DNA of 64,000 nucleotides from contig OZ244170.1 in assembly GCA_965216565.1 (NCBI GenBank), positions 2,080,001 to 2,144,000 of the forward strand, given 5' to 3'. The position numbers were made by a program, and so were the translations under genes. This document shows, one piece after another, positions 1 through 19,728 of the stretch. Within the stretch, counting starts at the first letter, position 1. Each line of letters starts with the position of its first letter. The notes beneath the pieces were generated by a model. It worked only from the letters and a program-made list of their open reading frames with translations, did no database searches and was not told the DNA's origin. This DNA is from Bythopirellula sp. GTDB taxonomy: Bacteria; Planctomycetota; Planctomycetia; Pirellulales; Lacipirellulaceae.

Positions 1-494
1 GGAAACTTCACGACGCCTCCATGATAAGCTCCATGGAAGGCGAGAATTTTGTTTCGACCAGTCACCATTCGCGCCGTCGTCAGCGCCATGATGCCAGCTT
101 CGGTTCCTGAATTGCAGAATCGCAATTGTTCCACCGAGGGAAAACGCTCGCAGATTAAACCCGCCAGCTCCCTTTCCAGCTCAGTCGGGGCGCCCATCAC
201 GATGCCCCTCTCCAATGCCTGTTGAACCGCCGACTTGATGGCTTGGTCCGAATGGCCAAACAGGCCGGCAGAAAACTCACCGACGAAGTCGACGTACCGA
301 TGCCCATCCAAGTCGACCAGCTCTGCCCCTTCGCCTCGAACCATGGTCAAGGGAAAAGGTTCGTAATGCAACACATTGCGTGTATTTCCCCCGGGCAAGT
401 AGCGCTGGGCCTCTTCGTCGGCTGCCATGCTCTGCGGATTGGCTGCCGCGTAGCGGTTACGTGCATCACTTAGTGCTTGTTGTAATGCTTCCAT
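1..494 (-). CDS. Class-III PLP aminotransferase, beta-amino-acid (beta-phenylalanine-type) transaminase; partial, 3' part beyond window start
   Basis: Not in the ORF track. Hand translation from ATG 494: MEALQQALSDARNRYAAANPQSMAADEEAQRYLPGGNTRNVLHYEPFPLTMVRGEGAELVDLDGHRYVDFVGEFSAGLFGHS...ICERFPSVEQLRFCNSGTEAGIMALTTARMVTGRNKILAFHGAYHGGVVKF. It has a GSA-aminotransferase-like fold. PGGNTRxVL, EF(S/T)AGxxGHS and YHGGV match my recollection of Variovorax/Mesorhizobium beta-transaminases better than HemL. Starts 8 bp after the thiolase stop. Confidence 0.85.
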   Translation of the reverse strand, partial: MEALQQALSDARNRYAAANPQSMAADEEAQRYLPGGNTRNVLHYEPFPLTMVRGEGAELVDLDGHRYVDFVGEFSAGLFGHSDQAIKSAVQQALERGIVMGAPTELERELAGLICERFPSVEQLRFCNSGTEAGIMALTTARMVTGRNKILAFHGAYHGGVVKF

Positions 495-502
495 AACTAG
501 CG

Positions 503-1705
503 CTACCCGACCTTCTCGATCGCCAGCGCAATTCCCTGGCCAACACCAACGCACATTGTGCAGAGGGCTCGTTTGCCTTCCCCGCGACGTAATTGATCGA
601 ATGCGGTCAGTGCCAGTCGGGCACCGCTCATACCCAAGGGATGGCCCAAGGCGATAGCTCCGCCGCGAGTATTGAGTCGGGAATCGTCATCCGCTAGCCC
701 TAGCTCTCTAGTACAGGCTAAAGCCTGCGCCGCAAATGCTTCGTTGAGTTCTAAGATATCGAAGCTATCCAACGTAACGCCTAACCGCTCGAGCAACTTG
801 TTCGTTGCGGGAACGGGACCAATGCCCATAATTCGCGGAGGCACACCGGCTACAGACATTCCAAGCACGCGAGCCACGGGTTCGAGTTGGTGACGCTTAG
901 CCCCAACTTCGGATGCCAGGAGCAATGCTGCGGCGCCGTCGTTGATGCCCGACGCATTTCCTGCGGTCACAGTGCCCTCTGGAAGAATTGGCTTCAGTTT
1001 GGCGAGTTTCTCGAGTGTTACTTCACGTGGATGCTCGTCCCGATCAACGAGGATCGGATCTTGCTTACGTCGCGGAACACTCACGGCGCAGATCTCACCA
1101 GCAAGTCGGCCGTCTTGCTGAGCAGTGGCGGCTTTGGTTTGACTCCAAATCGCAAACTGGTCTTGATCCTCGCGGCTGATGGAGCGTTCTCTGGCGAGGT
1201 TTTCAGCCGTTTCCGGCATCGATTCTGTGCCGTACTGCTCCTGCAGATTAGAGTTAATAAATCTCCATCCCATCGTGGTATCAAACATTTCCTGCTGTCG
1301 TCCAAAGGCCGCCTCCGGTTTGCCGATGACAAAAGGAGATCGAGACATACTCTCCACACCGCCGGCAATCATGAGATCGCCTTCTCCCGACTGGATTGCC
1401 GAAGCGCAGTTGCCCAAAGCGTTGAGCCCCGATGCACAGAGGCGATTGATTGTGTAGGCTGGCACTTCTTGCGGCACGCCGGCTAACAAACTGCTCATAC
1501 GCGCAACATTGCGATTGTCTTCCCCCGACTGATTGGTGCAGCCCAGCACAACATCGTCTAGCTCATGCCAGTCGACGCTAGGGTTTCGCTCCATCAGCGA
1601 CTTAATCGGTATCGCTGCCAGATCGTCGGTTCGAATCGTTGACAAACATCCTCCGTAACGCCCCACAGGTGTCCGGATTCCATCGCATAGGTAGACTTCA
1701 GTCAT
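503..1705 (-). CDS. pcaF: 3-oxoadipyl-CoA thiolase-like acetyl-CoA C-acyltransferase (PcaF/PaaJ type)
   Basis: RTPVGRYGG, NQSGEDNRNVARM, INRLCASG (catalytic Cys), NEAFAAQ, GGAIALGHPLG and TMCVGVGQG motifs. Confidence 0.93.
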   Translation of the reverse strand: MTEVYLCDGIRTPVGRYGGCLSTIRTDDLAAIPIKSLMERNPSVDWHELDDVVLGCTNQSGEDNRNVARMSSLLAGVPQEVPAYTINRLCASGLNALGNCASAIQSGEGDLMIAGGVESMSRSPFVIGKPEAAFGRQQEMFDTTMGWRFINSNLQEQYGTESMPETAENLARERSISREDQDQFAIWSQTKAATAQQDGRLAGEICAVSVPRRKQDPILVDRDEHPREVTLEKLAKLKPILPEGTVTAGNASGINDGAAALLLASEVGAKRHQLEPVARVLGMSVAGVPPRIMGIGPVPATNKLLERLGVTLDSFDILELNEAFAAQALACTRELGLADDDSRLNTRGGAIALGHPLGMSGARLALTAFDQLRRGEGKRALCTMCVGVGQGIALAIEKVG

Positions 1706-1745: not shown

Positions 1746-2405
1746 CTAATTTGCAGGCAACTGGTTTGCGGGTAATATCGCTGTCCCCGTTTTCTGCTCG
1801 ACCTCTGCAAACCTAATTCCGGGCGCCAATTCGGCAACTTGAAAACCCTCAGGAGTAATATCAACCACCGCCAAATCGGTGTAAACACGAGATATTACAC
1901 CCACGCCCGTCAGTGGATAGGAGCACTGTTTCACCAGTTTAGGTTCGCCAGTTTTGGTCGTGTGTTGGGTGAGTACGTAGATGTTTTTCACACCCTGCAC
2001 CAGATCCATCGCGCCGCCAACTGCAGGGATGGCATCGGGAGCCCCGGTGGACCAATTCGCAATATCTCCATGGGCTGACACTTGCATAGTGCCTAACACA
2101 CAGACATCAATATGACCGCCTCGGATCATGCTGAAACTGTCGGCATGATGAAAATACGCCGCTCCAGGCACGGCTGTCACGTACTTCTTCCCAGCATTCA
2201 TCAGGTCGAGATCGATTTTGTCCTCGGCCGGCGCGGGTCCCATGCCTAGCAAACCATTTTCGGTGTGATACATGAATTCACGACCCGCAGGCACAAATTT
2301 GGTGACCAGCTCTGGTATGCCGATGCCTAAATTGACGTACGATCCGTCGGGAATGTCCTGGGCCACTCGTGCCGCCATCTGCTCCCTTGTCCAACCATTA
2401 CTCAT
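1746..2405 (-). CDS. pcaJ: 3-oxoacid (3-oxoadipate-type) CoA-transferase subunit B
   Basis: YVNLGIGIP, TENG (catalytic Glu), SFSMIRGGH and PAVGGAMDL motifs. Start reassigned to ATG 2405 (MSNGWTREQMA), which overlaps the subunit A stop as ATGA. Confidence 0.92.
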   Translation of the reverse strand: MSNGWTREQMAARVAQDIPDGSYVNLGIGIPELVTKFVPAGREFMYHTENGLLGMGPAPAEDKIDLDLMNAGKKYVTAVPGAAYFHHADSFSMIRGGHIDVCVLGTMQVSAHGDIANWSTGAPDAIPAVGGAMDLVQGVKNIYVLTQHTTKTGEPKLVKQCSYPLTGVGVISRVYTDLAVVDITPEGFQVAELAPGIRFAEVEQKTGTAILPANQLPAN

Positions 2406-3112
2406 GGGTAACTCTTGCCCTCCGCAATCAGCGTGTCTTCGTGAATAGGCTGAGAAACTTCTACAACGCGATTGACAAAAATCCCAGGAGTGACGACGCA
2501 CTCGGGATCGATTTCTCCCCGTTCGACTAAATTTCTTGTCTGAACGATCGTGGTTGTAGCTGCCATGCACATCAGTGGGCTAAAGTTGCGGGCAGTTTTA
2601 TTGTAGGTCAAGTTGCCGAGGGGATCGGCACACTCACTCTTGATCAATGCAAAGTCTGCTTTCAACCACGGCTCTAACACATACGTCCGACCATCAAACT
2701 CACGTTGCTCTTTGCCCTCCGCCAGGACCGTACCCACAGTAGTAGGAGTATAGAAGGCAGGTATTCCCGCGCCGGCCGAACGAATGCGTTCCGCCAGGGT
2801 GCCTTGAGGAACCAGGTCGAGTTCTATCTTTCCTTCTCGAAATAGCTTGGGAAAAACACGCGATTGACTCGATCTAGGAAAAGAGCAAATCATCTTTCTC
2901 ACCTGTCCATTGCCAATCAGGGCAGCCAGGCCTACTTCGCCGTTGCCCGTGTTGTTGTTGATCAAAGTCAGATCCTTCGCACCTTGATCAATGAGCGCAT
3001 GGATCAATTCGATCGGACTACCCGATGCACCGAAACCGCCAACCATTACGGTTGCACCGTCAGGGATATCGGCCACGGCTTCCGCCACGGATGGGCATGT
3101 TTTGTTGATCAC
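2402..3112 (-). CDS. pcaI: 3-oxoacid (3-oxoadipate-type) CoA-transferase subunit A
   Basis: DGATVMVGGFG, NNTGNGEVGLAAL, ICSFPR, PQGTLAERIR and TARNFSP motifs. Start reassigned to GTG 3112 (MINKT...), with GGAGA just upstream. Confidence 0.92.
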   Translation of the reverse strand: MINKTCPSVAEAVADIPDGATVMVGGFGASGSPIELIHALIDQGAKDLTLINNNTGNGEVGLAALIGNGQVRKMICSFPRSSQSRVFPKLFREGKIELDLVPQGTLAERIRSAGAGIPAFYTPTTVGTVLAEGKEQREFDGRTYVLEPWLKADFALIKSECADPLGNLTYNKTARNFSPLMCMAATTTIVQTRNLVERGEIDPECVVTPGIFVNRVVEVSQPIHEDTLIAEGKSYP

Positions 3113-3153: not shown

Positions 3154-3987
3154 CTATCGAAAAACGTCCGTCGATTCCCAAAGTTCTTCAATTCGGTCGA
3201 TACGCTCAGTCGCTTCCTCCTTCAACTCTTTGGCAATCTTTGACACAAGCAACTCGGCGATCGCCACTACGGGGACGGAACTATCAAACGGCCCGATAGC
3301 CGGCACTGAAATTTCGCACCAAATATCTGCCAATTCGACAAGAGGAGACAGCGGGCCATCGGTAATCGCAACTATCTCTACTCCATTATCGGCTAGCAGT
3401 TCGGTTGCCGTCACGACTAACCGCCGATAGCGGAAAAAGTCGAACACAACGGCGACATCTTTCGGGCCTGCATTCCCAATTTCGCTACCAAGGGAACGGT
3501 CATCCAACATTTGCACGCCTGGCCGAACCATCGATAGTCCGCTCTTAAATGCAATCGCGCCGGCTTGCGACGTCTCGCCAGACAGGATCCAAACATTCTT
3601 TGCACGCACTATCGACCGGACGAGTTTTGTTATTTTTTGTCTCTGAATTGCATCAAAAACAGAGTCGATCGCGCCATCTATCGTCTCGCGAACTGACAGA
3701 TCTGGTTTTTCGTCGCCCCGAATCCTTTCACTAGGACGAGCCAGACGACGCGACACATCGCTGCGGACCAACCGCTGTAATTGTGTGAAACCTTCGAAGC
3801 CCAGTTTGTTGGCAAAACGTACTACCGAAGGTCGACTCGTGCCGATGCGAGTTGCCAGATCTGACACCGTTCCAAAAGCGAGCAACATCGGCTCGGCGAG
3901 CACTGTCTCTGCAATACGTCGGTCGGTGGGCGTAAATTGCCCTCCTGCCGCAACTACCAGATCGGTTAGTGGAGAATTTTCCCTCAT
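3154..3987 (-). CDS. MurR/RpiR family transcriptional regulator (HTH + SIS domain)
   Basis: TVSDLATRIGTSRPSVVRFANKLGFEGFTQLQ HTH. SIS-like DVAVVFDFFRY...IVAITDGPLSPL...FDS. Start likely ATG 3987. Confidence 0.92.
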   Translation of the reverse strand: MRENSPLTDLVVAAGGQFTPTDRRIAETVLAEPMLLAFGTVSDLATRIGTSRPSVVRFANKLGFEGFTQLQRLVRSDVSRRLARPSERIRGDEKPDLSVRETIDGAIDSVFDAIQRQKITKLVRSIVRAKNVWILSGETSQAGAIAFKSGLSMVRPGVQMLDDRSLGSEIGNAGPKDVAVVFDFFRYRRLVVTATELLADNGVEIVAITDGPLSPLVELADIWCEISVPAIGPFDSSVPVVAIAELLVSKIAKELKEEATERIDRIEELWESTDVFR

Positions 3988-3989
3988 GC

Positions 3990-4036
3990 TGTTCACTATG
4001 TTACACAGTTGTACCACTCTGTTCAACCTGTTACAC
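3990..4036. promoter_or_regulatory. Five ~10-bp-phased direct repeats (TGTTACAC-like) in the RpiR/aminomutase divergent intergenic region; candidate operator
   Basis: TGTTCAC 3990, TGTTACAC 3999, TGTACCAC 4010, TGTTCAAC 4020, TGTTACAC 4029. Confidence 0.55.
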
Positions 4037-4091: not shown

Positions 4092-5555
4092 GTGGCTAAC
4101 GATGACACATATGAGATGACAGACCGTCAGCAGGAATTTCTGGATTCAATTGATAGTCCGAAATACGAGCGAGAGATCATCAACGGCCTGAAGCCTTTTT
4201 TTGAAGAGAAGGCTCCGGAAGATATTAGAAACTTCTATTCCTCTGAGGAACTTGAGTCGTTGCGCGTCATTACCGACACCGAACGCGACGTGGAAACGCG
4301 GATGCCGGTGAAGGTTACCCGGCACTATTTCGAGTTGGCCAGAAACAGCCTGCCGCTGCAACGACTTGTGAAAGCCAGCCCGGACGAAACACTCAATCTG
4401 GAAGGGTCAGAAGATCCCGGTTATCAAATGGACTTCTCTCCGGTCGAGGGAATGTTGCACAAGTACGAGATGGGCTTGCTCTATACGGTCTCCACATGCT
4501 CGGCACATTGTCGTTTTTGTTACCGCGAAGAGCTGATCGGAAACAAAGAAGTAGAACGCCAAGATGGTTCGGTCGCCAGAAAAGGCATCGCTAAGATCAA
4601 AGACGTGACGGACTATATCCGCACACACAACGCCATGGTTGATTCCAATGGTGGAGTTCACCCAACGACAGGCCGCGAGAAACTTCGCGAAGTACTACTC
4701 TCGGGTGGCGATGCCATGATGCTTCCCAATAAGAAGATTGGTGAATGGCTGGCTGCCCTGGCAGAAGCAGGCGTGGAATCAATCCGCCTCGGCACGAAGG
4801 ACATGGCCTTCTACCCCAAACGCTTCGACAGCACCTTTTTGGCGATGATGGATAGTTTTCACGAAAAGTATCCAGACGTCGGATTCCGGTTGATGATTCA
4901 CTTTAATCATCCTGACGAATTCTTACTCAAAACGCCTGATGGCGAATATGCCACCAATCCAAATGGCACTCTCAAATGGCACGAAGACACGAAGCAGGCC
5001 ATGGAAGGCGTTGTCTCCCGCGGTTGGCTTAACGTCGAAAACCAAGCGCCGATCATCAAGGGCATCAATGACAATGTGGAAGCACTAAGGCTCATGCAAC
5101 GTGCCTTGTACCGATGTGGAATCAACAATCATTACTTTTTCTGTGGTAGAGATATCGTTGCTTACCGCGCCTTCAATGTCCCCATCGAAACCGCCTGGAC
5201 TCTTCTCAACGAATCCCAAAAAGGCTTGTCCGGCGTCGAAGCCCACGCGCGTCTCTCGATCACTCACTACAAGGGAAAAACCGAGGTTGCCGCGGTGACT
5301 AATGAACCGATGTCGGGAGTCCCTGGGGCAGAAAACGGCGTGCTAATTTTCAAGATTCTTCGCAACGCGTTGGATGCTCCAGACCGCGGCAAAGTATGCA
5401 TCGTGGGCCGCAACCCCGAAGCGATCTGGTTCGACGATTATGAAGACCGAGTGCTCTTTGACGAAGCCGGCTTGTACGAGTATTCGCGAGTCGACAAGAA
5501 GAAAGTCGAGATCAAGCAAACCGCAGATCTCGATACTGCGCTGAGCCAGAAGTAG
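4092..5555 (+). CDS. KamA-family radical SAM / PLP amino-acid 2,3-aminomutase-like protein (substrate probably not lysine)
   Basis: HKYE...CSAHCRFCYR (CxxxCxxC plus Arg), VLLSGGD, IRLGTK, HFNHPDE, NQAPIIKGINDN, and C-terminal KGKT (putative PLP lysine). GTG start with GAGG RBS. Confidence 0.9.
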   Translation: MANDDTYEMTDRQQEFLDSIDSPKYEREIINGLKPFFEEKAPEDIRNFYSSEELESLRVITDTERDVETRMPVKVTRHYFELARNSLPLQRLVKASPDETLNLEGSEDPGYQMDFSPVEGMLHKYEMGLLYTVSTCSAHCRFCYREELIGNKEVERQDGSVARKGIAKIKDVTDYIRTHNAMVDSNGGVHPTTGREKLREVLLSGGDAMMLPNKKIGEWLAALAEAGVESIRLGTKDMAFYPKRFDSTFLAMMDSFHEKYPDVGFRLMIHFNHPDEFLLKTPDGEYATNPNGTLKWHEDTKQAMEGVVSRGWLNVENQAPIIKGINDNVEALRLMQRALYRCGINNHYFFCGRDIVAYRAFNVPIETAWTLLNESQKGLSGVEAHARLSITHYKGKTEVAAVTNEPMSGVPGAENGVLIFKILRNALDAPDRGKVCIVGRNPEAIWFDDYEDRVLFDEAGLYEYSRVDKKKVEIKQTADLDTALSQK

Positions 5556-5590
5556 AAATAACACGCGGCAATGAAACGAATTCTTCGGCG

Positions 5591-5878
5591 GTTGGCTGCT
5601 CAGACTGTGAGTCGTGGCTTTGCTACGAGTGTGCAGCAACTTGCTCGAGTTGTGGAGAAGGACACTGCCATCAGTGCCTTCGATCCTGTGGCCGCTGCGA
5701 GGAACCGTTTTGCGCGAAGTGCCTTAAAACCTGCTCAGGCTGTCTGGAGCAAGTCTGTAACTGTTGTTTCATCTCAGACGAAAGGTGTGGTGATTGTTAT
5801 GAAGAAAATCAAGAGTCAACCAAATCCGTCTCTACGGTTCTCTCCCACCGCCTGGGCCAAGCTGCAATATCTCCATGA
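5591..5878 (+). pseudogene. Orphan 3' fragment of a Cys-rich (CxxC repeat) protein with no start codon
   Basis: The frame starting at 5591 reads VGCSDCESWLCYECAATCSSCGEGHCHQCLRSCGRCEEPFCAKCLKTCSGCLEQVCNCCFISDERCGDCYEENQES...ISP-stop (TGA 5876-5878). Not in the ORF track. Confidence 0.65.
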
Positions 5879-5995
5879 TGCAGGGGATACCGAACTCTGA
5901 GATTTCGGGATCGCCAGTGCCGAGGATCTCTTGTTGATCGAGGATGTGGTGCTCGTTGACCAGCGGTGCAGTGTGGTGGAAGTTGAACTAGTGGA
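5799..5995 (+). pseudogene. 5' fragment of a JAB/MPN-like peptidase gene with an in-frame stop, truncated before the metal-binding motif
   Basis: [63 protein letters not shown]. This resembles the planctomycete JAB-type N-terminus (LRFSPxAWAKL...TExGGFGI). TGA at 5898-5900 replaces the expected Gly, and no HTHP follows. Confidence 0.6.
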
Positions 5996-6149
5996 CTCGG
6001 TCGTGACAGATGCAATGCTGCGCCTTGTTCCAGCAAATAGATAGTCTGGAAGGGGAATTTGCGTTGTGCACATTTCCCCTTTTAGCTATCAACGCTTTCT
6101 AGATTCGTGGGACTCGATATTCGCTTCAAATTACCGACTTGCAAGCCAC

Positions 6150-8395: not shown

Positions 8396-9877
8396 ATGAG
8401 GAATTATCTATTTCTAACAATAACGGCGCTCGGTCTTGCCACATTTCTTAATGGTTCTTCTGCTTCTGCGCAATTTATTGCCGGCTGGGAACAATGGGCT
8501 TCTGGGGCTGGAGTAAAGGATGCAACCCAAACCGACGGATTCACCACAGCCACCACCCTCAACAACATGGGCAACAACAATGGTTTCGGTCTCGATTTCA
8601 CCGGGAACACCGACGGGACTTGGGGAACCTTAGCTGATCCCAATGCTGATGCGACAACAGACGAAAATTCTGATGGTTATCGGCTGACTAACGGTGAAGA
8701 TGGCTCGATCGATTTCATGTTGACAGACACCAGTGGTATCCCCAGAGATTTAAACACTTTTCATTTCGATACCGCCACTTGGAGACCTAACGCTGCCAAT
8801 GATTGGGAACTGTCGGTGATATCAGGTGATCTCACCGTGGGATCGATAGCGACCGGAAACGCTCCGAATGTCACGGGCGGTACCCCAGATTGGTCTGACT
8901 TCGATATCGATCTTACGGGGCTGGCTGACAATACACTGGACGGGAATGGTTCTGTAACGTTCCGCCTTAATTTTACAGGTGGCGTGTTAGGCAGTGCTGG
9001 CCACCATCAGTCGCTTGACAACGTGGCAATCTCTGGCGATGTTCCGACCTTGCCACCTAGCACTCTGCTCGCTGGTTGGGACGTCTGGGAATCAGACGGA
9101 GTCATTTCTCCCTCCTTCACCGAGGCAAATACAACAGGCTTCACGAGCAACAACGGTGGCGTTGCCGATCCCAACGGAAGCGGGTTTGGCCTGGATTTTG
9201 ACGGCAACACCGACGGGACTTGGGGTACTTTAGATACTCCTGCGGCCGACACAACAACAGACGACAACATGGATGTCTTCCGGTTGGTTAATGGTGAAGA
9301 TGGTTCTCTAGATTTCACGATCACCGACACGGGCGGTGTCGATCGAGACTTGGCTATTTTCCATTTTGACTCGGCTACGTTGCGACCAAATTCCTCTCGA
9401 GACTACGAGCTATCGATCGTAGCCGGTGACCTGACTTTAGGCACAGTAGCAACGGGTACCGTGCCGTCTCTTACAGGAGGTGTTCAGGATTGGACCGATT
9501 TTGATATCGTTCTCACCAATCTTGCTGACTTTACCTTGGATGCAAACGGGTCGGTCACTTTCCGGTTGCAATTTACCGGAAGCGATCCGAACTCTTCGCA
9601 AGCTGGTCACCATCAGTACCTAGATAATGTTGGCATTTCTGAGCTAGCGGCTCTCCCTGGTGACTTCGACTTCAGTGGAGTCGTCGATGGGTTGGATTTC
9701 CTTTTCTGGCAAGTAAACCTTGGCGACGCTGCCAATCTCACTCTGTGGGAAAACAACTACGGTAATTCACTGTCTGTAGGGGCATCCACAGCGGTTCCTG
9801 AACCTTCGAGTGCCGCACTCTTGACGTTGTTGACGGCCGGTGTGCTCTCTCGAAGGCGCCATCGTCGGATTCATTGA
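8396..9877 (+). CDS. PEP-CTERM surface protein made of two copies of the locus-specific ~190-aa module
   Basis: Signal peptide; two AGWxxW...GHHQxLDNVxIS repeats; PGDFD..DGLDFLFWQ motif; VPEP + TM + RRR. Confidence 0.9.
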   Translation: MRNYLFLTITALGLATFLNGSSASAQFIAGWEQWASGAGVKDATQTDGFTTATTLNNMGNNNGFGLDFTGNTDGTWGTLADPNADATTDENSDGYRLTNGEDGSIDFMLTDTSGIPRDLNTFHFDTATWRPNAANDWELSVISGDLTVGSIATGNAPNVTGGTPDWSDFDIDLTGLADNTLDGNGSVTFRLNFTGGVLGSAGHHQSLDNVAISGDVPTLPPSTLLAGWDVWESDGVISPSFTEANTTGFTSNNGGVADPNGSGFGLDFDGNTDGTWGTLDTPAADTTTDDNMDVFRLVNGEDGSLDFTITDTGGVDRDLAIFHFDSATLRPNSSRDYELSIVAGDLTLGTVATGTVPSLTGGVQDWTDFDIVLTNLADFTLDANGSVTFRLQFTGSDPNSSQAGHHQYLDNVGISELAALPGDFDFSGVVDGLDFLFWQVNLGDAANLTLWENNYGNSLSVGASTAVPEPSSAALLTLLTAGVLSRRRHRRIH

Positions 9878-9972
9878 TCCTGTTAGTTCACTGTTTTGAA
9901 CCACAGAAATTTCAAATTGTTTGTCATGTTTTTTGATCTAACCTTTTACCACTTTTCTTGAGGAGAAGACTA

Positions 9973-10692
9973 ATGATTTTGAGAGGATTAATTGTAACGT
10001 GTTTAGCGTTAGGCTTGCACGCCAACTGTTCGGCGGCCCTGATCGTGGCTTTTGATCAGGTTCGAAGTTCGAACGGCACTGATCCATTGAACTACGTAGT
10101 GCAAGACAGCGTCGACGTGATCACCACGCGCAGTGGCACCAACTCCTCCGGCGGTTCTGCTACTCCAGGCGTCAACAAAGAAGGCTCTACTGATGGCACA
10201 ATTGGTAGCGTCGCCGCTGCTGGCGTGAGTACTGATACAACAATAAACGGTGAGTCATGGCGTTGGACAAACGGCGCACAGACTGCCAATTTCGACTTCG
10301 ATTTCACTGATACCAGTGGTGCGGCCAGAACTGTATCAACATTCCATTTCGATGGTGGAACGAATCGTCCGAATGTAGCACAGGACTGGGAATTGTTTCA
10401 CGTCACAGGCGGAGGTGATGTTAGCCTCGGCACTGGAACGATTCCTCTTGTTTCTGGCGGCGCACTCCCAGAATACACAGACTTCGACGTTGCTTTGGGA
10501 GGCTTGACGTTACCTGCTAATGGTACGCTCAGCCTGAGTCTTCGCTTCACGAGGGATGATACAAACTCAGGCGTCAGCGGCCATCACGGTTACATCGATA
10601 ACATCGGACTCAGTGTTGTTCCAGAACCAAGCAGCTTGGCTCTGTTGACAATGATGTCCGTCGTCGCGCTCGGCAGAAAACGCCGTTCGTAA
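9973..10692 (+). CDS. PEP-CTERM surface protein with one diverged copy of the module
   Basis: AGGAG RBS before ATG 9973; signal peptide; STDGT...RWTNG...FHFDGGTNRP...GHHGYIDNIGLS; VPEPSS + TM + RKRRS. Confidence 0.9.
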   Translation: MILRGLIVTCLALGLHANCSAALIVAFDQVRSSNGTDPLNYVVQDSVDVITTRSGTNSSGGSATPGVNKEGSTDGTIGSVAAAGVSTDTTINGESWRWTNGAQTANFDFDFTDTSGAARTVSTFHFDGGTNRPNVAQDWELFHVTGGGDVSLGTGTIPLVSGGALPEYTDFDVALGGLTLPANGTLSLSLRFTRDDTNSGVSGHHGYIDNIGLSVVPEPSSLALLTMMSVVALGRKRRS

Positions 10693-10727
10693 CAAGTAAT
10701 TTTGGAATTTGTTAGACACTAATTGAG

Positions 10728-10765
10728 ACAGGTTCGGTGCACTATGCAGCGCCGAACCTGTTTTT
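10728..10765 (+). terminator. Rho-independent terminator inside the PEP-CTERM gene run
   Basis: 13-bp stem ACAGGTTCGGTGC / GCGCCGAACCTGT (one G-U pair) followed by a T-tract. Confidence 0.75.
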
Positions 10766-10781
10766 CGATTGAAGGAATGGG

Positions 10782-13013
10782 ATGTACAGCTTCCGCTTGA
10801 TTCTTGTCCTGCTTATCTGTCAGGCCTGTGGGTTGGCGTTTGCTGTAGAGTACCCCTATTCCAACGTTGGGCCGCAGAGCGCTTCACTAAGCGTCAGCAC
10901 CTTCAACCCAACGCCTTTCAATAGCAAGCTGCTCGGGCTAAACACCAATTTTCCCGAGAATCAGTATGGTAGTGATGGCTACAACGACGCCGATGGGCAG
11001 GCGTTGATCACAGCCTGGTCGCCACCAGCATTGAGGTTTCCACATGGAGTGTGGTCCAACTTCTACGACTGGGAAGTCGATGGTCGCCGAATCTACGACA
11101 ACTACATGGGCACGTACTACAATGCTGTCGTGAATCACCCGAATTTGCGGTATGGATATGACGGCTTCAAAACGCTGCATGACAGTCTGGGTTTCGATGT
11201 TCTTCATACTTGGAACGTGAATTATGACAGTCCCGCTAAAGGTGTTGCCAGGCTTCAGGACCGAAGAGCCGATGGATTTGACGTCAATCGTATTGAGCTC
11301 GGCAATGAGACCTTCTGGGTGAATCAGCGTAGCGAAGCTGTTGCTACTCCCGCACTGTACGTGTCGGTCGCCCAGGCACACTCTGCGGCGCTGAAAGCCG
11401 AGGATCCGAACATTCAAATCTCAGTACCCGTTTCCTGGAGGACGACAGGCCACCATGTGCCTTGGAACGCTGCCCTGGAAGCCGACCAGTCCTATTACGA
11501 CGCAGTCACACTCCATAAGTACATTCGACCAGGCGATTCGACCGCTGGGTTGCAGGAAGTACTCGACGCCCGCGCACAAATGATTCAGACCGCTGAGGCC
11601 ACCCGTGCGCAGTTTCCAGGTAAGCCGATCTGGCTATCGGAGTGGAGTATCGATGGAGGCGATAACGCCATCAGCGTGCTGGGGCTCTCGGATACGTATT
11701 TGGGGCTTATCGATCGACCCGATCTGTTCGATTCTGCCGAATACTTCCAAATCCACAATCACGATCCCTTGGTAATCTACGACAAGAATGCAAACCCCAA
11801 GCACGTGAAGACAACCCGCGGAGCTGGCTACGATATTCTTCGCAACGTGTTCCTCGACAGCGAACTGCTTTCTGGACAGGTCACCTCCAGCGAGATCGTG
11901 CCCGGCTTGGAAGCGACTTCGGCGAAGGCAGTCCTCAGAAATGGAGAACTAGTAGTCTACGCGGTTAACAAATCGCCAGTCAGCGTCCCGTTCAGCCTGG
12001 ATGTCGACAATACTGCCTATAGTGGAGCCTATACCCACGAGACACTACAGTTTAACGACGTCAACGACTTCCCTACTTTTGATCTCGGCGATAGTGGGCT
12101 AACGACTATCTCGTCCACGCCAGGCTCTATCACTCTCCCGCCGCTTTCGATCAGTGTGCTTTCCGGATTCGATCCAATTGAACCGAGCACTCTAGTAGCG
12201 GGTTGGGACACATGGAATGAAGTTGCCCCAGATTCGTGGGACGCTTCTCACTCTGCGGGAGTTTCGGCCCAAGCGGTCGGCACGGCGGAGGCTGGGGGTA
12301 TTTGGTTTAACTTTAGTAATGCAACAGTAGAAAATGGGGCCAGCAGCGATGGGCAGTTTGGAGCGACTGGCCCAGCTGAAGCCGAAACCTCAGTTGCCGT
12401 GAACACCGATGGGACGACTCTGTCCAACGGTTACGATGGGTCGATCGACTTCGTGTTAACTGATACTACTGGGACTGATAGGGCCCTAACCGGGTTTCAT
12501 TTTGATACGGGTGCTTTCCGACCGAACGCTGCCACAGATTGGGAGCTGGAAGTACTGGCAGGCGGCGATCTCACTGCGGGTTCTTTGGCTGCCGGAACTA
12601 CGACCATTAACCAAGGCCCCATACAAGACGATGAATCGATTAGTCTCAACGGACTCGCTGACAACACGCTAGAAGCATTTGGGTCAGTCACTTTTCGACT
12701 TAGTTTCACTGGAGGCGTCGACGGCTCGGCTGGTCACCATCTATTCTTGGACAATGTCGGGATCAGCGGATTTGCTCTTGGATTGCCGGGGGACTTCGAC
12801 AGCGATGGCGATGTGGATGGGCTCGACTTTATTGAGTGGCAAATGAACGACGGCACCGCTGCTGGGCTAGCGGACTGGCAGAACAACTATGGAACACAAT
12901 CACCTCAAGTCGCGGCAGCAGCGACCGTACCCGAGCCATCCTCGATGCTGCTGCTGACGTTGGGGACGATTCTATTTGCGAAGAGAAAAAGGCATGAGCC
13001 ATATGATAAATAA
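10782..13013 (+). CDS. PEP-CTERM-anchored clan GH-A glycoside hydrolase (GH51/GH79/GH39-like TIM barrel + beta-sandwich) plus one module copy
   Basis: LRFPHGVWSNFYDW, IELGNE (acid/base), DAVTLHKY, PIWLSEWS (nucleophile), VYAVNK...ITLPPLS; then module, PGDFD motif and VPEP. Confidence 0.8.
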   Translation: MYSFRLILVLLICQACGLAFAVEYPYSNVGPQSASLSVSTFNPTPFNSKLLGLNTNFPENQYGSDGYNDADGQALITAWSPPALRFPHGVWSNFYDWEVDGRRIYDNYMGTYYNAVVNHPNLRYGYDGFKTLHDSLGFDVLHTWNVNYDSPAKGVARLQDRRADGFDVNRIELGNETFWVNQRSEAVATPALYVSVAQAHSAALKAEDPNIQISVPVSWRTTGHHVPWNAALEADQSYYDAVTLHKYIRPGDSTAGLQEVLDARAQMIQTAEATRAQFPGKPIWLSEWSIDGGDNAISVLGLSDTYLGLIDRPDLFDSAEYFQIHNHDPLVIYDKNANPKHVKTTRGAGYDILRNVFLDSELLSGQVTSSEIVPGLEATSAKAVLRNGELVVYAVNKSPVSVPFSLDVDNTAYSGAYTHETLQFNDVNDFPTFDLGDSGLTTISSTPGSITLPPLSISVLSGFDPIEPSTLVAGWDTWNEVAPDSWDASHSAGVSAQAVGTAEAGGIWFNFSNATVENGASSDGQFGATGPAEAETSVAVNTDGTTLSNGYDGSIDFVLTDTTGTDRALTGFHFDTGAFRPNAATDWELEVLAGGDLTAGSLAAGTTTINQGPIQDDESISLNGLADNTLEAFGSVTFRLSFTGGVDGSAGHHLFLDNVGISGFALGLPGDFDSDGDVDGLDFIEWQMNDGTAAGLADWQNNYGTQSPQVAAAATVPEPSSMLLLTLGTILFAKRKRHEPYDK

Positions 13014-14700
13014 AACGGTTCTGATTGGTTTGATCTTTTCAGTAGTAGCTTGCTGTAACGTACTCTGTTACGCGCAGGGCGTTCTCTACACAGAAGGTCC
13101 GGGTACCAATCCGCCATTTGAAGATATCCGGGACGATATTACGAACGGATACTCGGGAACCGTGATCGATGTGAACAACGCGTTGGTCGAGGGCGGGCTA
13201 TACGGTTCCCTAGGTATCGAAGACAACCTGCGACTCCACACACTCGCGAATAGTTCGATAAGCCAGAGCAACTTTGATAACTGGAGCCGGTGGTATCAGA
13301 CCGATGGGGCGACGCAAATCTTCCGGCTCTTCCCAGGTGAGGAGAATGTTCGCAATAGTCGGCCGCTGGCAGCTCGAGTCGAGGCCTTTGACGCAAACAC
13401 TGGCTGGAACGTCGGCGACGGAGAGTGGCACGACTGGGTTGCTCGCTACACCATAGTAAAACCGATAAACGCGGCGATCTTCCAAGCAAAAGACCAAGAT
13501 GACGAGGCGTGGTCTGTGCATCTGAATATGAATCAGGATGGACGAGTCTCTGTGACACATAGGCGCCCATTGCCGGGGCAACCCAAGACCGAGACTCTGG
13601 TGGAGAATGCAATCGGTCAGCCTTTTGACGTTCGTGTTCGAGACAATGGACTCGACTACGAGGTTTACTTTGGCGACCAGACCCAACCGTTCACGACAGG
13701 GCAATATGTTCGGAATGCTGATCCTGGAGACAATTCAGACACACGATTCCGTTGGGGAATTTATGTTGGAGCCCAGGAGGTCTTAAGCGAAGCGATGATC
13801 TTTGTCAGTCACGCGTCCGTAGACCCAGTCATTGACATTCCTACCGAACCCGACCCGGAATACGGCACGCTCATTGCCGGTTGGGATACTTGGGATAGCG
13901 GAGCTACTCCTACCGCATCTGTCACCGCGGCTGGTATTGCTGCATCGGCTGTTACAACAACTGAAGGAATAAACTGGCATACGACCGACGAACGGGGTGC
14001 CAGCGCTGACGGCGATTGGGGAACTTTTGCGGGTGCCCCTGCAGCAGACACTTCTGTTGCTGATACGGACAATCAAAATCTAGAGTTGTCCAATGCCACG
14101 TCAGGCGGAACGATTACCTTTACGATCACTAACAATGGCACAGAGGACATCGAACTGGACGGCTTTCATTTCGATGCGTATGCCTTCCGTCCCAAAGCAG
14201 CTAGAGCCTACGAATTGAGCGTGGCGTCGGGCGATATCTCGAACGGTGTGATTTATACTTCTAGCGATGATGAGATCACCAGCGTTTCGGGGGCATGGGA
14301 CAACAATGCTCACGACGATATCAGCCATTCCTTGTTGGGACTCACCGACAATGTCCTCGAAGTTGGCGGAACAGTGGATTTTCTACTGGCTTTTTCAAGT
14401 GGAGCAGGCGATGGTACCGGCGGGCATGATCTTTGGGTCGATAATGTTGCCATCACTGCGGTGGTAGACATAGCGGACGGCGACTTCGATGGCGATGGCG
14501 ATGTCGATGGACTCGACTTCCTAGAATGGCAGACTAGCAATGGCACAGCGGCTGGCATAACGGCTTGGCAAGAAAACTATGGAAACCAGCCACCATTGAA
14601 TGCTACCTCCACAGCTGTGCCTGAGCCCAGCGGGATTTTATTGATCGCCATACTTTCTCTCCACCTGACCAACAGAAGCTGCAAGCGGTTGGTGAGCTAA
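13003..14700 (+). CDS. PEP-CTERM-anchored jelly-roll polysaccharide lyase-like protein (PL7/PL28-like) plus one module copy
   Basis: ARVEA, IFQAK and FRWGIY resemble the RxE / QxK(H) / YFKxGxY strands of jelly-roll lyases; then module, GDFDGDGDVDGLDFLEWQ and VPEP. Start likely ATG 13003. Confidence 0.7.
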   Translation: MINKTVLIGLIFSVVACCNVLCYAQGVLYTEGPGTNPPFEDIRDDITNGYSGTVIDVNNALVEGGLYGSLGIEDNLRLHTLANSSISQSNFDNWSRWYQTDGATQIFRLFPGEENVRNSRPLAARVEAFDANTGWNVGDGEWHDWVARYTIVKPINAAIFQAKDQDDEAWSVHLNMNQDGRVSVTHRRPLPGQPKTETLVENAIGQPFDVRVRDNGLDYEVYFGDQTQPFTTGQYVRNADPGDNSDTRFRWGIYVGAQEVLSEAMIFVSHASVDPVIDIPTEPDPEYGTLIAGWDTWDSGATPTASVTAAGIAASAVTTTEGINWHTTDERGASADGDWGTFAGAPAADTSVADTDNQNLELSNATSGGTITFTITNNGTEDIELDGFHFDAYAFRPKAARAYELSVASGDISNGVIYTSSDDEITSVSGAWDNNAHDDISHSLLGLTDNVLEVGGTVDFLLAFSSGAGDGTGGHDLWVDNVAITAVVDIADGDFDGDGDVDGLDFLEWQTSNGTAAGITAWQENYGNQPPLNATSTAVPEPSGILLIAILSLHLTNRSCKRLVS

Positions 14701-14783
14701 AGCGGACACAATGGAATTAATAAAATTCTATGGTGAGGAAAGGAACAACCCTTTAGCAAAGTGCTTCATTCATGGGTTTTAAG

Positions 14784-14810
14784 TGTCCAGAACCCGGGAT
14801 ATGGAACGTT
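14784..14810 (+). promoter_or_regulatory. Putative ECF-sigma promoter TGTCCA-N17-CGTT for the DUF1559 operon
   Basis: TGTCCA gaacccgggatatggaa CGTT ctac. Confidence 0.7.
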
Positions 14811-14870
14811 CTACAAAAGAGTGGTGTATCTATTCTTCATGCCGGGATTCACAGGAATACTAACTGAATC

Positions 14871-15854
14871 ATGACGAACTTAGACATCCGTCACGATCGC
14901 GATAGCTCCAAGGCTTTCACGCTGGTTGAGCTGCTGGTCGTGATAGCCATTATTGGTGTTCTTGTGGCCCTGTTGTTACCTGCTGTACAAGCCGCACGCG
15001 AGGCAGCACGCCGCATGCAGTGCAGCAACCAGCTCAGGCAGATAGGATTAGCCACCCAGAATTACCATGATACCAATCTGAAGCTCCCCATCGCGTCCGC
15101 GGAGGGCACGAATATCAGCTGCCTTGCTCAGATCCTTCCCTTTCTGGAACAGCAAAGCTTGCGAGACTTGGTGAACGAGGAGAGAAGCTGGTCGCACTCT
15201 TCAAACGAATCGGCAAAGCTGACTCTCGTATCCGTGTTTCTATGCCCATCAACCGGGCCCGACCTGGGAGCGTTTCTTACGCAGCCAGGTCAGTCCTCTG
15301 CTTATGTAGAATCAACGCCGCTAAGAGCTCACTACTTTGGAGTGATGGGGGCCAAGTCGGAGCATTGCCCGATCGATTCATCGACGCCTTGGCCTGATTC
15401 CGGCTACGAATTCGTGGAATGCAATCACAGGTCGGGTGGCTATGCGGCGAACGGGGCGATTGCTTTGCGGGAGAATGTCGCGTTCAATGAAATTACCGAT
15501 GGATTGTCGAATACGATGGTGTTTGCCGAGCAGTCGTGGGTATCTCCTGACAATGGAGTTGGCCCCTCTAGGGTCTGGATTGTGGGTTTGTCGGGGAAGT
15601 TCGTTTACAACGCAGAAAATATTTTCAAACCGATGAGGGTTGCATATCGCGACGTACCCGGATCGTCGAACAACAGCAGTGGCTACTTCAATAACGATGG
15701 CAGCATGGGCAGTGAACACCCTGGAGGTGCTCACGTCAATCTAATCGATGGCTCGGTCCAGTTTTTTAATGAGGACATTGATTTGCGAGTACTCAAGGCC
15801 TATGCCACCCGTGCCAATGAAGACAACTTGAATCCAGAAGTCATTGGTTCCTAA
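14871..15854 (+). CDS. DUF1559 prepilin-type N-terminal cleavage/methylation domain protein
   Basis: [42 protein letters not shown] and [14 protein letters not shown] (H-X9-DG). Confidence 0.95.
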
Positions 15855-15935
15855 AGGTCTAGAAATCTTCTGTAAATGCTTGCGTCCGGCGATGGCGACC
15901 TAGTAGCGGAAGTCACGGTGCTGTTTAGAAATTAT

Positions 15936-15965
15936 CATGACAACGAATACCATGACAACGAATAC
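15936..15965 (+). repeat. Perfect 15-bp tandem duplication CATGACAACGAATAC x2 containing the start codon
   Basis: 15936-15950 is identical to 15951-15965. Confidence 0.9.
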
Positions 15966-16437
15966 ACCAGCTTACCGCTTCCCAATAGCTATCCCACACA
16001 GCTTCGCAAAGCGAAGCTTTCACTATGGATGCTTTGTGTTTTTCTCCAGTGCCTGCACTTTGATAGGGGGTTGCTCGACCCATGATCATCCTTTGGTGCC
16101 TGCAACTGGCACAGTCATTCTCGATGGTAAGCCGCTTACGTTAGGGGTCGTCATTGCGACGGCTGAGAATGGGCGGGACGCGCGAGGTGATATTGCGCCG
16201 GATGGGTCATTCAGCTTAGAAACACGTCCCTGGGGTCAGGGAGCGTTGGTTGGTGTTCACCGCGTTTCTGTCAAGGCATACAAACTGAATGACCCTTCTA
16301 ACCCAGAGTCGATGGGTGTCTCTTTAGTGCCTGCGAAATACACAAATGCCTATAACTCGGGAATCTCAATCGAAGTTACTGAGGATGGAGAAAACGACTT
16401 CCGCATTGAGCTCTCTAGTAAACCCCGTCGACCTTAG
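15937..16437 (+). CDS. DUF1559-associated small lipoprotein (carboxypeptidase-regulatory-like/transthyretin-like fold)
   Basis: LIGGC lipobox-like, GTVILDGKPL, DGSFSL, GALVGVHRVSV, VPAKY and N.F.IEL. Confidence 0.85.
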   Translation: MTTNTMTTNTPAYRFPIAIPHSFAKRSFHYGCFVFFSSACTLIGGCSTHDHPLVPATGTVILDGKPLTLGVVIATAENGRDARGDIAPDGSFSLETRPWGQGALVGVHRVSVKAYKLNDPSNPESMGVSLVPAKYTNAYNSGISIEVTEDGENDFRIELSSKPRRP

Positions 16438-16631
16438 CCGATTCTAGACTTTCTCTTATGGCAGGCCACGCGATAATCGAGGTGTGATAGGTTGAGCAAA
16501 GGTGCTTCCCTCCTGGAAATCTTCCATTCGATTGCCCCAACGTCTTATAAACTCGAATGGAGATCTCTACCAGTCAGGCCTTTAATAATTCCGTTGATCA
16601 CCCAGCATGAGACACTCCGAAGGATACCGTT

Positions 16632-18110
16632 TTGATCTATCGCACTTACTCAATCAGCAAATGGCTAATTCTATTTCTGATAGTGGTTATAGAGTGCAGT
16701 CTCGTTCACGCTGAGCCAATCACGAGAAGTAGCAGGCCGAACTTCCTGATCTTCATTGCTGACGACTTGAACAAAGAATACTTCAAGTGTTATGGCAATA
16801 AGCATACTGCGGCACCGACCACTTCGCGTCTAGCAGCGGAGGGCATGGTATTCGATAGCGCCTTCACTGGGCAGGCGATTTGTACTCCGTCGCGGGCGAT
16901 GCTCTATACAGGCAAATACCCGTTGAGAAACGGGGCGTTTATGAACCATTCGCATGTGTTCGAGGGGACTCGAAGCGTCTGTCACTATCTTCGTGATGCC
17001 TCTTACAACGTCATTCTCTGTGGAAAGTCGCATGTTAACCCAGATAGTGCGTTCCCTTGGACGATTGCCATGGATTCTGTTGAGCCGGCCGGTGATCCCG
17101 CAATGTATACGAGGCCTACGATGCCGCTGGATAGGGTGGAGACCTATTTAGCTAACAAGAGCAATGACGATGAACGCCCCTTCTGTATCATGGCCTCCAG
17201 CTTCTACCCTCATGGGGAGCATCCTCAGAACACCAACTTCACCGCAGATTCGATCAGCGTCACCCGATTTCAAGAAGACAACAGACGGACGAGACAGTCC
17301 GAGGCTAGGTTTAGCCAGGCCGTTCAGAATAGTGACGACGAACTCTCCCAGATGCTTGGCCTCTTGGAGAAGTATGGTCTATCTAGGAACACGATGGTGA
17401 TTTTCGCTTCTGATCATGGGCGTTTCGGTAAATGGTCCGTCTACGACAAGGGACTCAATGTTCCCTTCATTGTGCGGTGGCCGGGAGTTGTTAAGGCAGG
17501 AACAAGAACCAATGCCCTCATTTCTTTTGCAGATGTTCTTCCGACGATGCTAGAGTTAGCAGGCGCAGAACCCGTCGAAGATCTTGACGGCAGGAGTTTC
17601 TTAAGCCTCCTCAACGGTAGTACAACGACACACCAGGACTACGTCTATGGTGTGATGACCAATCAGGGAATTATTAACGCCCATGTATTTCCCGGAAGAA
17701 TGATTCGGTCGAAGCGATACAAATACATTCGGAATTACAACGCGATGGAAGTCGTAGAGCGTCGCGAGAGGGCAGGGGAGAAGTGGATTGATTTCCTAAG
17801 AATGGGAGCTGAACAGCATCCGGGTGTGCCCGAAGAGGAGCTTTTCGATATTCTTAACGATCCAGAAGAGCAAAACAATTTGGCTGCCGATCCGAACTAC
17901 CGCGAAATCAAAGCAGATTTGAAAAAGAAGCTGCAAGACTGGCTGGTTGCTCAGAACGACTTTTTAAGATTGGAAGGACATATGCCTTTCTTGGCTACTC
18001 AAAAACATTTTAGATTGGATTTGTTAAGCCATCCCAAGAATAGAGTTGTGCTGCCCTCCAGTCTGAAGCACTCCCTTGATGGGTATGAGTTTTACACTCA
18101 TCAAAACTGA
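16632..18110 (+). CDS. Sulfatase (S1, N-sulfoglucosamine sulfohydrolase-like)
   Basis: RPNFLIFIADD, CTPSR..LYTG, GKSHV, SDHG and KWSVYDKGLNVPFIVRWPG. Confidence 0.93.
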   Translation: MIYRTYSISKWLILFLIVVIECSLVHAEPITRSSRPNFLIFIADDLNKEYFKCYGNKHTAAPTTSRLAAEGMVFDSAFTGQAICTPSRAMLYTGKYPLRNGAFMNHSHVFEGTRSVCHYLRDASYNVILCGKSHVNPDSAFPWTIAMDSVEPAGDPAMYTRPTMPLDRVETYLANKSNDDERPFCIMASSFYPHGEHPQNTNFTADSISVTRFQEDNRRTRQSEARFSQAVQNSDDELSQMLGLLEKYGLSRNTMVIFASDHGRFGKWSVYDKGLNVPFIVRWPGVVKAGTRTNALISFADVLPTMLELAGAEPVEDLDGRSFLSLLNGSTTTHQDYVYGVMTNQGIINAHVFPGRMIRSKRYKYIRNYNAMEVVERRERAGEKWIDFLRMGAEQHPGVPEEELFDILNDPEEQNNLAADPNYREIKADLKKKLQDWLVAQNDFLRLEGHMPFLATQKHFRLDLLSHPKNRVVLPSSLKHSLDGYEFYTHQN

Positions 18111-18170
18111 CCTTCCAGAGGACAACAGTCACACAATCGACCCTCAGAAGAATGAATAGTGTAGAAGACT

Positions 18171-19553: not shown

Positions 19554-19640
19554 TTGCAGAGTTTCGGCAGAAAACTGCTCCTGTAGAGGATCAATAGAGC
19601 ACTTAGAGGAACTTTTTTGAACCCGTTCGGTTGCAATAAA

Positions 19641-19681
19641 CATGCAAGGGAGGCGTACTGCCCCGACGCTCCCCTTGCATG
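19641..19681. terminator. Hairpin between convergent genes, likely terminator
   Basis: CATGCAAGGG...CCCTTGCATG stem, extendable inward by GCGT/ACGC. Confidence 0.6.
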
Positions 19682-19728
19682 CTGCTATTGTGACTAGCAC
19701 GAAAGCGTATCTCTCGCTCGAGAGTCAA

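Follow-up and report, generated by a model that had tools for sequence, protein, structure and literature searches.

We analysed a 64,000-nucleotide stretch of DNA (the window) from the planctomycete Bythopirellula sp. (GenBank assembly GCA_965216565.1, contig OZ244170.1, positions 2,080,001 to 2,144,000), and in particular one of its genes, predicted to encode a 2-aminoadipate 2,3-aminomutase. By fold and motifs, the protein is a radical S-adenosylmethionine (SAM) and pyridoxal 5′-phosphate (PLP) enzyme of the KamA family. Its open reading frame (ORF) starts with a GTG codon and is divergent from a gene for an RpiR-family regulator, which is followed by genes for the two subunits of a 3-oxoacid coenzyme A (CoA) transferase, a thiolase, and a class III transaminase (Table 1). 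The paired boxes between the divergent genes are a likely RpiR operator. Together, the substrate pocket and the neighboring genes point to a catabolic route from 2-aminoadipate through 3-aminoadipate and 3-oxoadipate to succinyl-CoA and acetyl-CoA, which we consider likely and in which the predicted aminomutase reaction comes first.

Table 1 Features of the aminomutase locus, with positions in the window
Feature	Position	Strand	Basis
Predicted 2-aminoadipate 2,3-aminomutase, KamA-family radical SAM/PLP enzyme	4092..5555	+	487-residue ORF; fold and motifs
CxxxCxxC [4Fe-4S] motif (Cys136, 140, 143) and Arg145, equivalent of LAM Arg134	4497..4526	+	alignment
Third insertion relative to LAM, about 19 residues after HPDEF	4929..4985	+	alignment
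Arg353 (codon AGA) at the LAM Asp293 position; proposed side-chain carboxylate anchor	5148..5150	+	three aligners
Ser389-Ile-Thr-His392, with Ser389 at the LAM Asp330 position; clade-typical	5256..5267	+	alignment
Lys396 (codon AAA), equivalent of LAM Lys337; predicted PLP Schiff-base lysine	5277..5279	+	alignment
Two 16-bp boxes, TGTTCA-N3-TGTTACA (3990-4005, 4020-4035), between the divergent genes	3990..4035	.	similar boxes in 23 aligned loci
RpiR-family regulator (HTH_6 and SIS), divergent; start at 3987 inferred	3154..3987	-	domain match
3-Oxoacid CoA-transferase subunit A, PcaI type	2402..3112	-	similarity (67% to PcaI of a pca cluster)
3-Oxoacid CoA-transferase subunit B, PcaJ type; start inferred	1746..2405	-	similarity (54%)
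3-Oxoadipyl-CoA thiolase PcaF	503..1705	-	TIGR02430, 659 bits (cut-off 597)
Class III β-transaminase, 5′ part, start inferred; gene ends 816 bases beyond the left edge	1..494	-	similarity

A Pfam search of the aminomutase ORF gave no match, and its scores against all six KamA-type NCBIfam models were weak (73-86 bits) and far under every cut-off: 85.7 bits against a curated 199.2 for TIGR00238 (KamA family), 72.6 against 525.4 for TIGR03820 (AblA; two reference AblA proteins scored 756 and 628), 83 against 650 for TIGR04368 (Eam), 77 against 600 for TIGR04468 (BlsG), and 83 against 369 for TIGR03821 (EpmB). An AlphaFold2 model built from a 59-row alignment (predicted local distance difference test, pLDDT, 92.8) had the lysine 2,3-aminomutase (LAM) of Clostridium subterminale, 2A5H, as its top structural match (Foldseek E 1e-18), and structure comparison with 2A5H gave a Z of 34.2 and a root-mean-square deviation of 2.3 over 311 residues, the runner-up having a Z of 14.2. 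An earlier model from 21 close sequences reached a pLDDT of 61 and was set aside. The protein has the LAM fold with CxxxCxxC in its radical SAM barrel, a PLP lysine at the Lys337 position (Lys396), and an α-carboxylate arginine at the Arg134 position (Arg145). It is a divergent branch outside the curated TIGR00238 model, though its fold and motifs fit the KamA family. Phmmer matches to the designed β-propellers Cake and Scone were short, confined to the third insertion, and taken as chance, and an ESM Atlas search returned generic KamA or hypothetical clusters only.

Compared with KamA/AblA, the enzyme shares the fold and the Cys triad, and the residues Arg134, Ser169, Asp172, Arg198, His230, Gln258, Tyr288, and Lys337 of 2A5H all have equivalents. 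However, identity is about 24%, Asp293 is replaced by Arg and Asp330 by Ser, the Arg116 and Cys268 positions are lost, three insertions are present, and the gene context differs. BlsG and EpmB likewise share the KamA fold and the PLP lysine, but they keep Asp293 and belong to another branch, and the aminomutase has neither their scores nor the bls or efp context. By homology it would work like LAM and Eam, yet it falls below all of their curated models.

A preliminary description of this DNA had read the pocket as charge-reversed, and the residues that it relied on lie where it placed them (His347 of HYFFCGRD at 5130-5132, followed by Arg353 and Lys396), including the arginine retained after the Cys triad, Arg145 (codon 4524-4526), which aligns with LAM Arg134. 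The register was examined with two HMMER profiles against 2A5H (one with E 3.8e-79), with MAFFT in a multiple alignment with AblA, BlsG, and EpmB, and with hhalign against an Asp-clade profile (probability 100). All three aligners paired Arg353 with Asp293 without gaps, a pairing anchored by the downstream F-x-x-P, and Ser389 fell on Asp330 and Lys396 on Lys337 in every alignment but one HMMER profile that ended before the PLP loop. Both of the aspartates that we take to bind the ε-amine of lysine in LAM, Asp293 and Asp330, are lost. Two details of the earlier reading needed correction. It had placed Ser or Thr at the Asp330 position, where Ser389 aligned and Thr391 did not, and it had counted two insertions after the Cys motif, both of which (about 8 and 16 residues) were found again while hhalign added a third, of 19 residues.

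In a quick tree, 66 rows drawn from query hits and from references (an uneven sample) split into an Asp branch of 11 rows, containing AblA, BlsG, and EpmB, and an Arg branch of 55 rows, eight of which form the query clade. Residue 353 is Arg in 46 of the 47 other Arg-branch rows and Asp in 10 of the 11 Asp-branch rows, whereas residue 354 in those 47 rows is variable (Pro 24, Glu 11, Asp 8, other 4). As 354 varies while 353 is nearly constant, a register that puts Asp354 on Asp293 is not favored, and all three aligners oppose it too; the alignments confirm Arg353 as the counterpart of Asp293 and Ser389 as that of Asp330. Within the close clade (200 redundant, related rows, of which 80 are loci and 120 are protein hits, the query among them), every row covering the position has Arg353 (197/197), Ser389 (196/196), and Lys396 (195/195), the rest being incomplete. 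According to PMC9850924, the substrate scope of LAM is governed by one active-site Asp, and D331G or D339H made LAMs alanine mutases; by our alignment, the Asp330 equivalent of the Bacillus AblA is residue 339, seven before Lys346. A dicarboxylic substrate is very probable for the aminomutase, and the acidic substrate first put forward from the pocket gains independent support from the gene context. The pocket by itself cannot tell glutamate from 2-aminoadipate, and the neighboring genes do most of the separating.

The preliminary description had also called the protein a distinct subfamily. The clade is indeed tight and separate, both in the tree and in the 200-row conservation, but the arginine is not peculiar to it: its presence in nearly all other Arg-branch rows makes it old and widespread rather than a subfamily mark. 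The hallmark of the query clade is Ser-Ile-Thr before the PLP lysine, where the other Arg-branch rows mostly have Val/Ile-Met-Ser, with mostly Val, Ile, or Ala at the Ser389 position itself. For one Arg-branch member, L114, the gene context is informative. It lies among genes for a proline iminopeptidase, a PLP enzyme, an adenylation enzyme, and polyketide synthases, and the adenylation enzyme has as its top PDB match 5JJQ (619 bits), presumably IdnL1, with which it is identical across the stretch expected to contain Leu220. In PMC9169493, Leu220 is said to select 3-aminobutyrate. According to PMC11284099, feeding and knockout experiments assign the supply of β-glutamate in incednine biosynthesis to the radical SAM enzyme IdnL4, which showed no activity in vitro. 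By its context, L114 is a probable IdnL4-like glutamate mutase in an incednine-type β-glutamate cassette. As the Arg branch contains this probable glutamate mutase, Arg293 suggests an acidic substrate without naming which; in the one case traced, glutamate is the acid suggested.

This raises the alternative that the window encodes a glutamate 2,3-aminomutase, which would convert glutamate into β-glutamate and then 3-oxoglutarate for CoA transfer and cleavage, or would serve to degrade β-glutamate, a known osmolyte (PMC1224877). Our enzyme and L114 have in common the Arg293 branch, the Arg followed by Asp, and the lack of an acid at the 330 position, and the length of the Arg might let it contact a shorter side chain. 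However, L114 sits on a long separate branch of the quick tree and has a Val-Met-Ser-Thr loop instead of Ser-Ile-Thr-His, and its cassette is biosynthetic, with decarboxylase-like and adenylation genes where the window has a transaminase and PcaIJF. Eam belongs to the same family and acts on an acidic substrate, but the aminomutase is far under its cut-off. The preliminary description gave glutamate 2,3-aminomutase Lys and Asn at the 293 and 330 positions, where the aminomutase has Arg and Ser. Moreover, the cluster has recruited two CoA-transferase families, both of them, like the thiolase, of the 3-oxoadipate type; with 2-oxoglutarate as the amino acceptor, the net outcome would be only the conversion of 2-oxoglutarate into 3-oxoglutarate; and the link to the dehydrogenase Pcd, discussed below, would be left unexplained. 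We regard glutamate as an unlikely substrate. A methanogen glutamate 2,3-aminomutase was reportedly described by Tunckanat in 2022. A clostridial Eam sequence was found in none of 301 genomes, nor among the 60 matches listed of 140 plasmid rows.

Several other members of the family were observed. In a sister clade, six proteins (P0134, P0137, P0142, P0145, P0131, and P0158) keep Arg293 and have Gln (five rows) or Val (one row) at the Arg134 position, and with this loss the substrate may be of a different kind; in a metagenome scan, P0126 yielded two loci, with no similar cluster by eye. On an Amycolatopsis sp. AA4 plasmid (L110, 3750-15954), an Arg-branch KamA has as its neighbors a Glu/Leu/Phe/Val dehydrogenase, a CoA transferase, and two each of CoA ester lyases and MaoC dehydratases, a set that looks like a further route for the catabolism of an acidic amino acid. 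On a Rhizobium sp. NXC24 plasmid (L109, 4517-9083), an RpiR regulator and an ectB-like transaminase adjoin an Arg-branch KamA; this type is common on rhizobial plasmids and is annotated as lysine 2,3-aminomutase despite the loss of both aspartates. The Bythopirellula genome itself, searched as a single 5.2-Mb contig, encodes a KamA-like paralogue (G000:C1:1330653-1331624; L092/L135) that has a very long branch and a His in place of Asp293; the gene after it is small and Cys-rich. A Mycetohabitans KamA beside a non-ribosomal peptide synthetase was considered as a functional anchor and left unused; no link was made from HabB to L111. According to PMC9802438, HabB is a phenylalanine aminomutase whose relatives are those of hitachimycin and andrimid.

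The genes around the aminomutase recur at related loci. A GTDB scan, from which the best 80 of at least 572 relatives were taken, gave loci 66-79% identical from eight phyla. With our own locus excluded, 67 of these 80 have CoA-transferase subunit A, 66 subunit B, 64 the RpiR regulator, 60 a class III transaminase, and 25 the thiolase, in gene orders rearranged several ways. Subunits A and B occur together with the transaminase in 58 of the 80 loci, in 33 of the 37 with long flanks, and in all five clade carriers that turned up among 200 genomes sampled evenly from the same phylum. The transaminase slot is occupied by two lineages, 63-73% and 29-36% identical to the protein of the window, whose top PDB matches are the β-transaminase 2YKU/4AO9 and 6K8H/ForI, respectively; a 68% orthologue of the window's transaminase, at L007, has the Mesorhizobium β-transaminase 2YKU as its best match. 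The predicted logic of the cluster is the conversion of an α-amino acid into a β-amino acid, a 3-oxo acid, and a 3-oxoacyl-CoA, followed by thiolysis. In principle this logic fits any side chain, and the closest solved relatives of the transaminase include a β-phenylalanine aminotransferase, as would be expected if a hydrophobic or aromatic amino acid such as Phe or Leu were moved to its β form and degraded via its 3-oxoacyl-CoA. The invariant Arg at the side-chain position and the 3-oxoadipate type of the downstream enzymes make such a substrate highly improbable.

Which 3-oxo acid is formed was addressed through the CoA-transferases and the thiolase. Compared with a full protocatechuate cluster, the latter is 60% identical to PcaF, as against 67% and 54% for the two transferase subunits with PcaI and PcaJ; its score is above the PcaF cut-off, and its top PDB hits include the β-ketoadipyl-CoA thiolase 6PCA. 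The CoA-transferase hidden Markov model covers all 3-oxoacid CoA-transferases, not the 3-oxoadipate type specifically. Among the top plasmid relatives of the CoA-transferase, two of the three regions opened adjoin pcaF or sit in a full pca cluster, and the third (Tistrella) has no pca genes, with DUF1338 and aldehyde dehydrogenase genes nearby. The sole cultured carrier found, the Mesorhizobium sp. 113-3-3 plasmid (L104, aminomutase 64% identical), has a ferredoxin and a transaminase in its cluster and a CoA-transferase of another, distantly related GctAB-like family. Of three regions opened for the closest relatives of this second transferase (78-81%), both annotated ones place them inside pca operons. 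Two unlike 3-oxoadipate-type transferases beside the same mutase is our strongest single argument. The alpha gene of the Mesorhizobium transferase (L104 13257-13970) is missing from the annotation table and apparently frameshifted; either a pseudogene or an error in the sequence could account for this.

The proposed substrate of the CoA-transferase, 3-oxoadipate, does not seem to come from aromatic compounds. We assembled 53 carriers chosen for having the cluster (our own genome, five same-phylum carriers, and 47 of the 80 loci), and neither pcaH nor pcaD was above cut-off in any of them, whereas each was in two of 14 controls. The carriers lack the classical supply of 3-oxoadipate. Compared with the lower β-ketoadipate pathway, the transferase and thiolase are kin of the pca-cluster genes, but here 3-oxoadipate is proposed to arise from an amino acid; traced back through a β-transaminase and a 2,3-mutase, it leads to 2-aminoadipate. 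The true substrate might instead be a different dicarboxylic amino acid, for example 2-aminopimelate or a substituted 2-aminoadipate, processed by broad-specificity PcaIJF-like enzymes. The pocket argues for a distal anion only, and transferases 54-67% identical to PcaIJ leave room for drift. Nevertheless, no such substrate is obviously abundant, the Mesorhizobium β subunit is about 80% identical to pca-operon genes, and the co-occurrence with Pcd points to lysine, so that we think another diacid very unlikely.

The genomes that carry the cluster also tend to encode a source of 2-aminoadipate. A Pcd/aminoadipate-semialdehyde dehydrogenase (788 bits, cut-off 730) is encoded in the Bythopirellula genome directly after a saccharopine-dehydrogenase-like gene, and close homologues of this 2-aminoadipate-forming enzyme (E <= 1e-120) are present in 49 of the 53 carriers. 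In an even sample of the same phylum, all six carriers have it compared with 84 of 195 other genomes; a second even sample gave four of four against 41 of 147, two of the four also being among the 53. HglS, a known onward route, is absent from the Bythopirellula genome and was found in two of the 53 carriers. Lysine ε-aminotransferase (Lat) was considered as a source, but with just seven of the 53 carriers above cut-off it is not a general one.

A link to Pcd-like dehydrogenases would also be explained if the mutase acted on lysine or N-acyl-lysine and the terminal carbon were oxidized later, again giving 3-aminoadipate or a 3-oxo acid. Many relatives are named lysine 2,3-aminomutase in databases, and in G382/G285 and Mesorhizobium the cluster has an amidase nearby. 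However, with both Asp positions lost the Arg would face an amine, Asp293 is kept by AblA, BlsG, and EpmB alike, the AblA model scores 73 bits against 525, and two amidase queries found no homologue in 85 GTDB loci; there is very little chance that lysine or an acyl-lysine is the substrate. The route could also run in reverse and make 2-aminoadipate from succinyl-CoA and acetyl-CoA for biosynthesis, all four steps being reversible in principle. As thiolysis and the β isomer are the favored directions and the carriers hold an oxidative, 2-aminoadipate-forming dehydrogenase, this seems extremely improbable.

For the catabolic route from 2-aminoadipate, a mechanism can be proposed by homology with LAM. 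L-2-aminoadipate would form an external aldimine with the PLP freed from Lys396, Arg145 would hold the α-carboxylate, and the 5′-deoxyadenosyl radical would take a hydrogen from C3, so that the amino group shifts from C2 to C3. The distal C6 carboxylate would be held by Arg353 and the Ser389/Thr391/His392 loop, where LAM would use its two aspartates to hold the ε-amine of lysine, whose chain has the same length as that of 2-aminoadipate. The linked β-transaminase would then convert 3-aminoadipate into 3-oxoadipate, PcaIJ would form 3-oxoadipyl-CoA, and PcaF would split it into succinyl-CoA and acetyl-CoA. Upstream, lysine would reach 2-aminoadipate by way of a saccharopine- or lysine-dehydrogenase-like enzyme and Pcd, whose genes lie at another place in the genome. 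Both divergent arms are probably under the control of RpiR, acting at the two boxes, and the aminomutase would be the first step of a regulated catabolic module that, from 2-aminoadipate on, releases no CO2, needs no oxidation, and yields a C4 unit.

Several observations weigh against 2-aminoadipate as the substrate. L114 is the Arg branch's sole anchor to a function and indicates glutamate, if indirectly, and a long Arg in place of Asp could suit that shorter acid. The closest solved transaminases are known for β-phenylalanine, the thiolase is linked in just 25 of the 80 loci, and 11 of them, some incomplete, have no CoA-transferase or transaminase nearby; L024, L055, L060, L077, L079, and L080 have kilobases of flank and still neither. 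The argument from the second transferase comes from one locus with an apparently frameshifted alpha gene. Matches below cut-off do occur in the carriers (pcaH 17/53, pcaD 11/53), the majority of which are incomplete metagenome-assembled genomes. The dehydrogenase is common anyway (28-43% of non-carriers) and missing from four of the 53 carriers, in co-occurrence counts that are small, involve non-independent kin, and use background samples that leave out gammaproteobacteria; the Pcd cut-off was scored for the Bythopirellula copy only, and the other routes checked in the carriers were HglS and Lat. Finally, no lysine-catabolic gene is fixed in the cluster: a saccharopine-dehydrogenase-like gene stands beside the regulator in one of 86 loci, and in two related genomes only, the mutase has an additional Pcd-like copy at a distance of about 13 kb.

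The surroundings of the aminomutase gene have features of their own. Its 3′ end and the bases just beyond (170 bases, window positions 5425-5594) are repeated at 92% about 69.4 kb downstream (G000:C1:2154817-2154986; L094:4818-4987), and the part examined of the stretch between the copies is rich in sulfatase and PEP-CTERM genes. This repeat may mark an island inserted at the aminomutase 3′ end or an old duplication. A gene remnant with an internal stop near 5900 follows at 5587-6135; its segment 5587-6000 has a 94% match at G000:C1:4219051-4219465 and its segment 5993-6135 an 81% match at 4220921-4221070, about 1.4 kb of the other copy being missing. Farther on (8396-21573), a run of PEP-CTERM proteins sharing a LIAGWDxW-like motif by eye, together with sulfatases, looks like a polysaccharide-use locus.

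A full-text literature search, judged from listings and the beginnings of abstracts and with few subscription papers in scope (the primary ones on LAM, Eam, and the methanogen glutamate mutase being outside it), showed no 2-aminoadipate aminomutase or pathway of this kind. On balance, and with moderate confidence, we favor the view that an undescribed 2-aminoadipate 2,3-aminomutase opens an undescribed lysine catabolism joining the lower β-ketoadipate pathway. In sediments and soils, this regulated module would have spread sideways across eight or more bacterial phyla, recruiting 3-oxoadipate CoA-transferases twice, and the Arg293 branch of KamA may be a large and mostly mis-annotated group of acidic-amino-acid mutases.

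If this is true, the few radical 2,3-aminomutases would gain a new substrate and lysine degradation a new route. Lysine would also be connected directly to 3-oxoadipate, which is of interest as a precursor in making adipate. The presence of PcaIJF genes in genomes without the aromatic ring-cleavage branch would be accounted for, and many "lysine 2,3-aminomutase" labels would be corrected. For the bacteria themselves, the route would keep all six carbons of 2-aminoadipate and give succinyl-CoA without an oxidation step, which could suit life in low-oxygen sediments.

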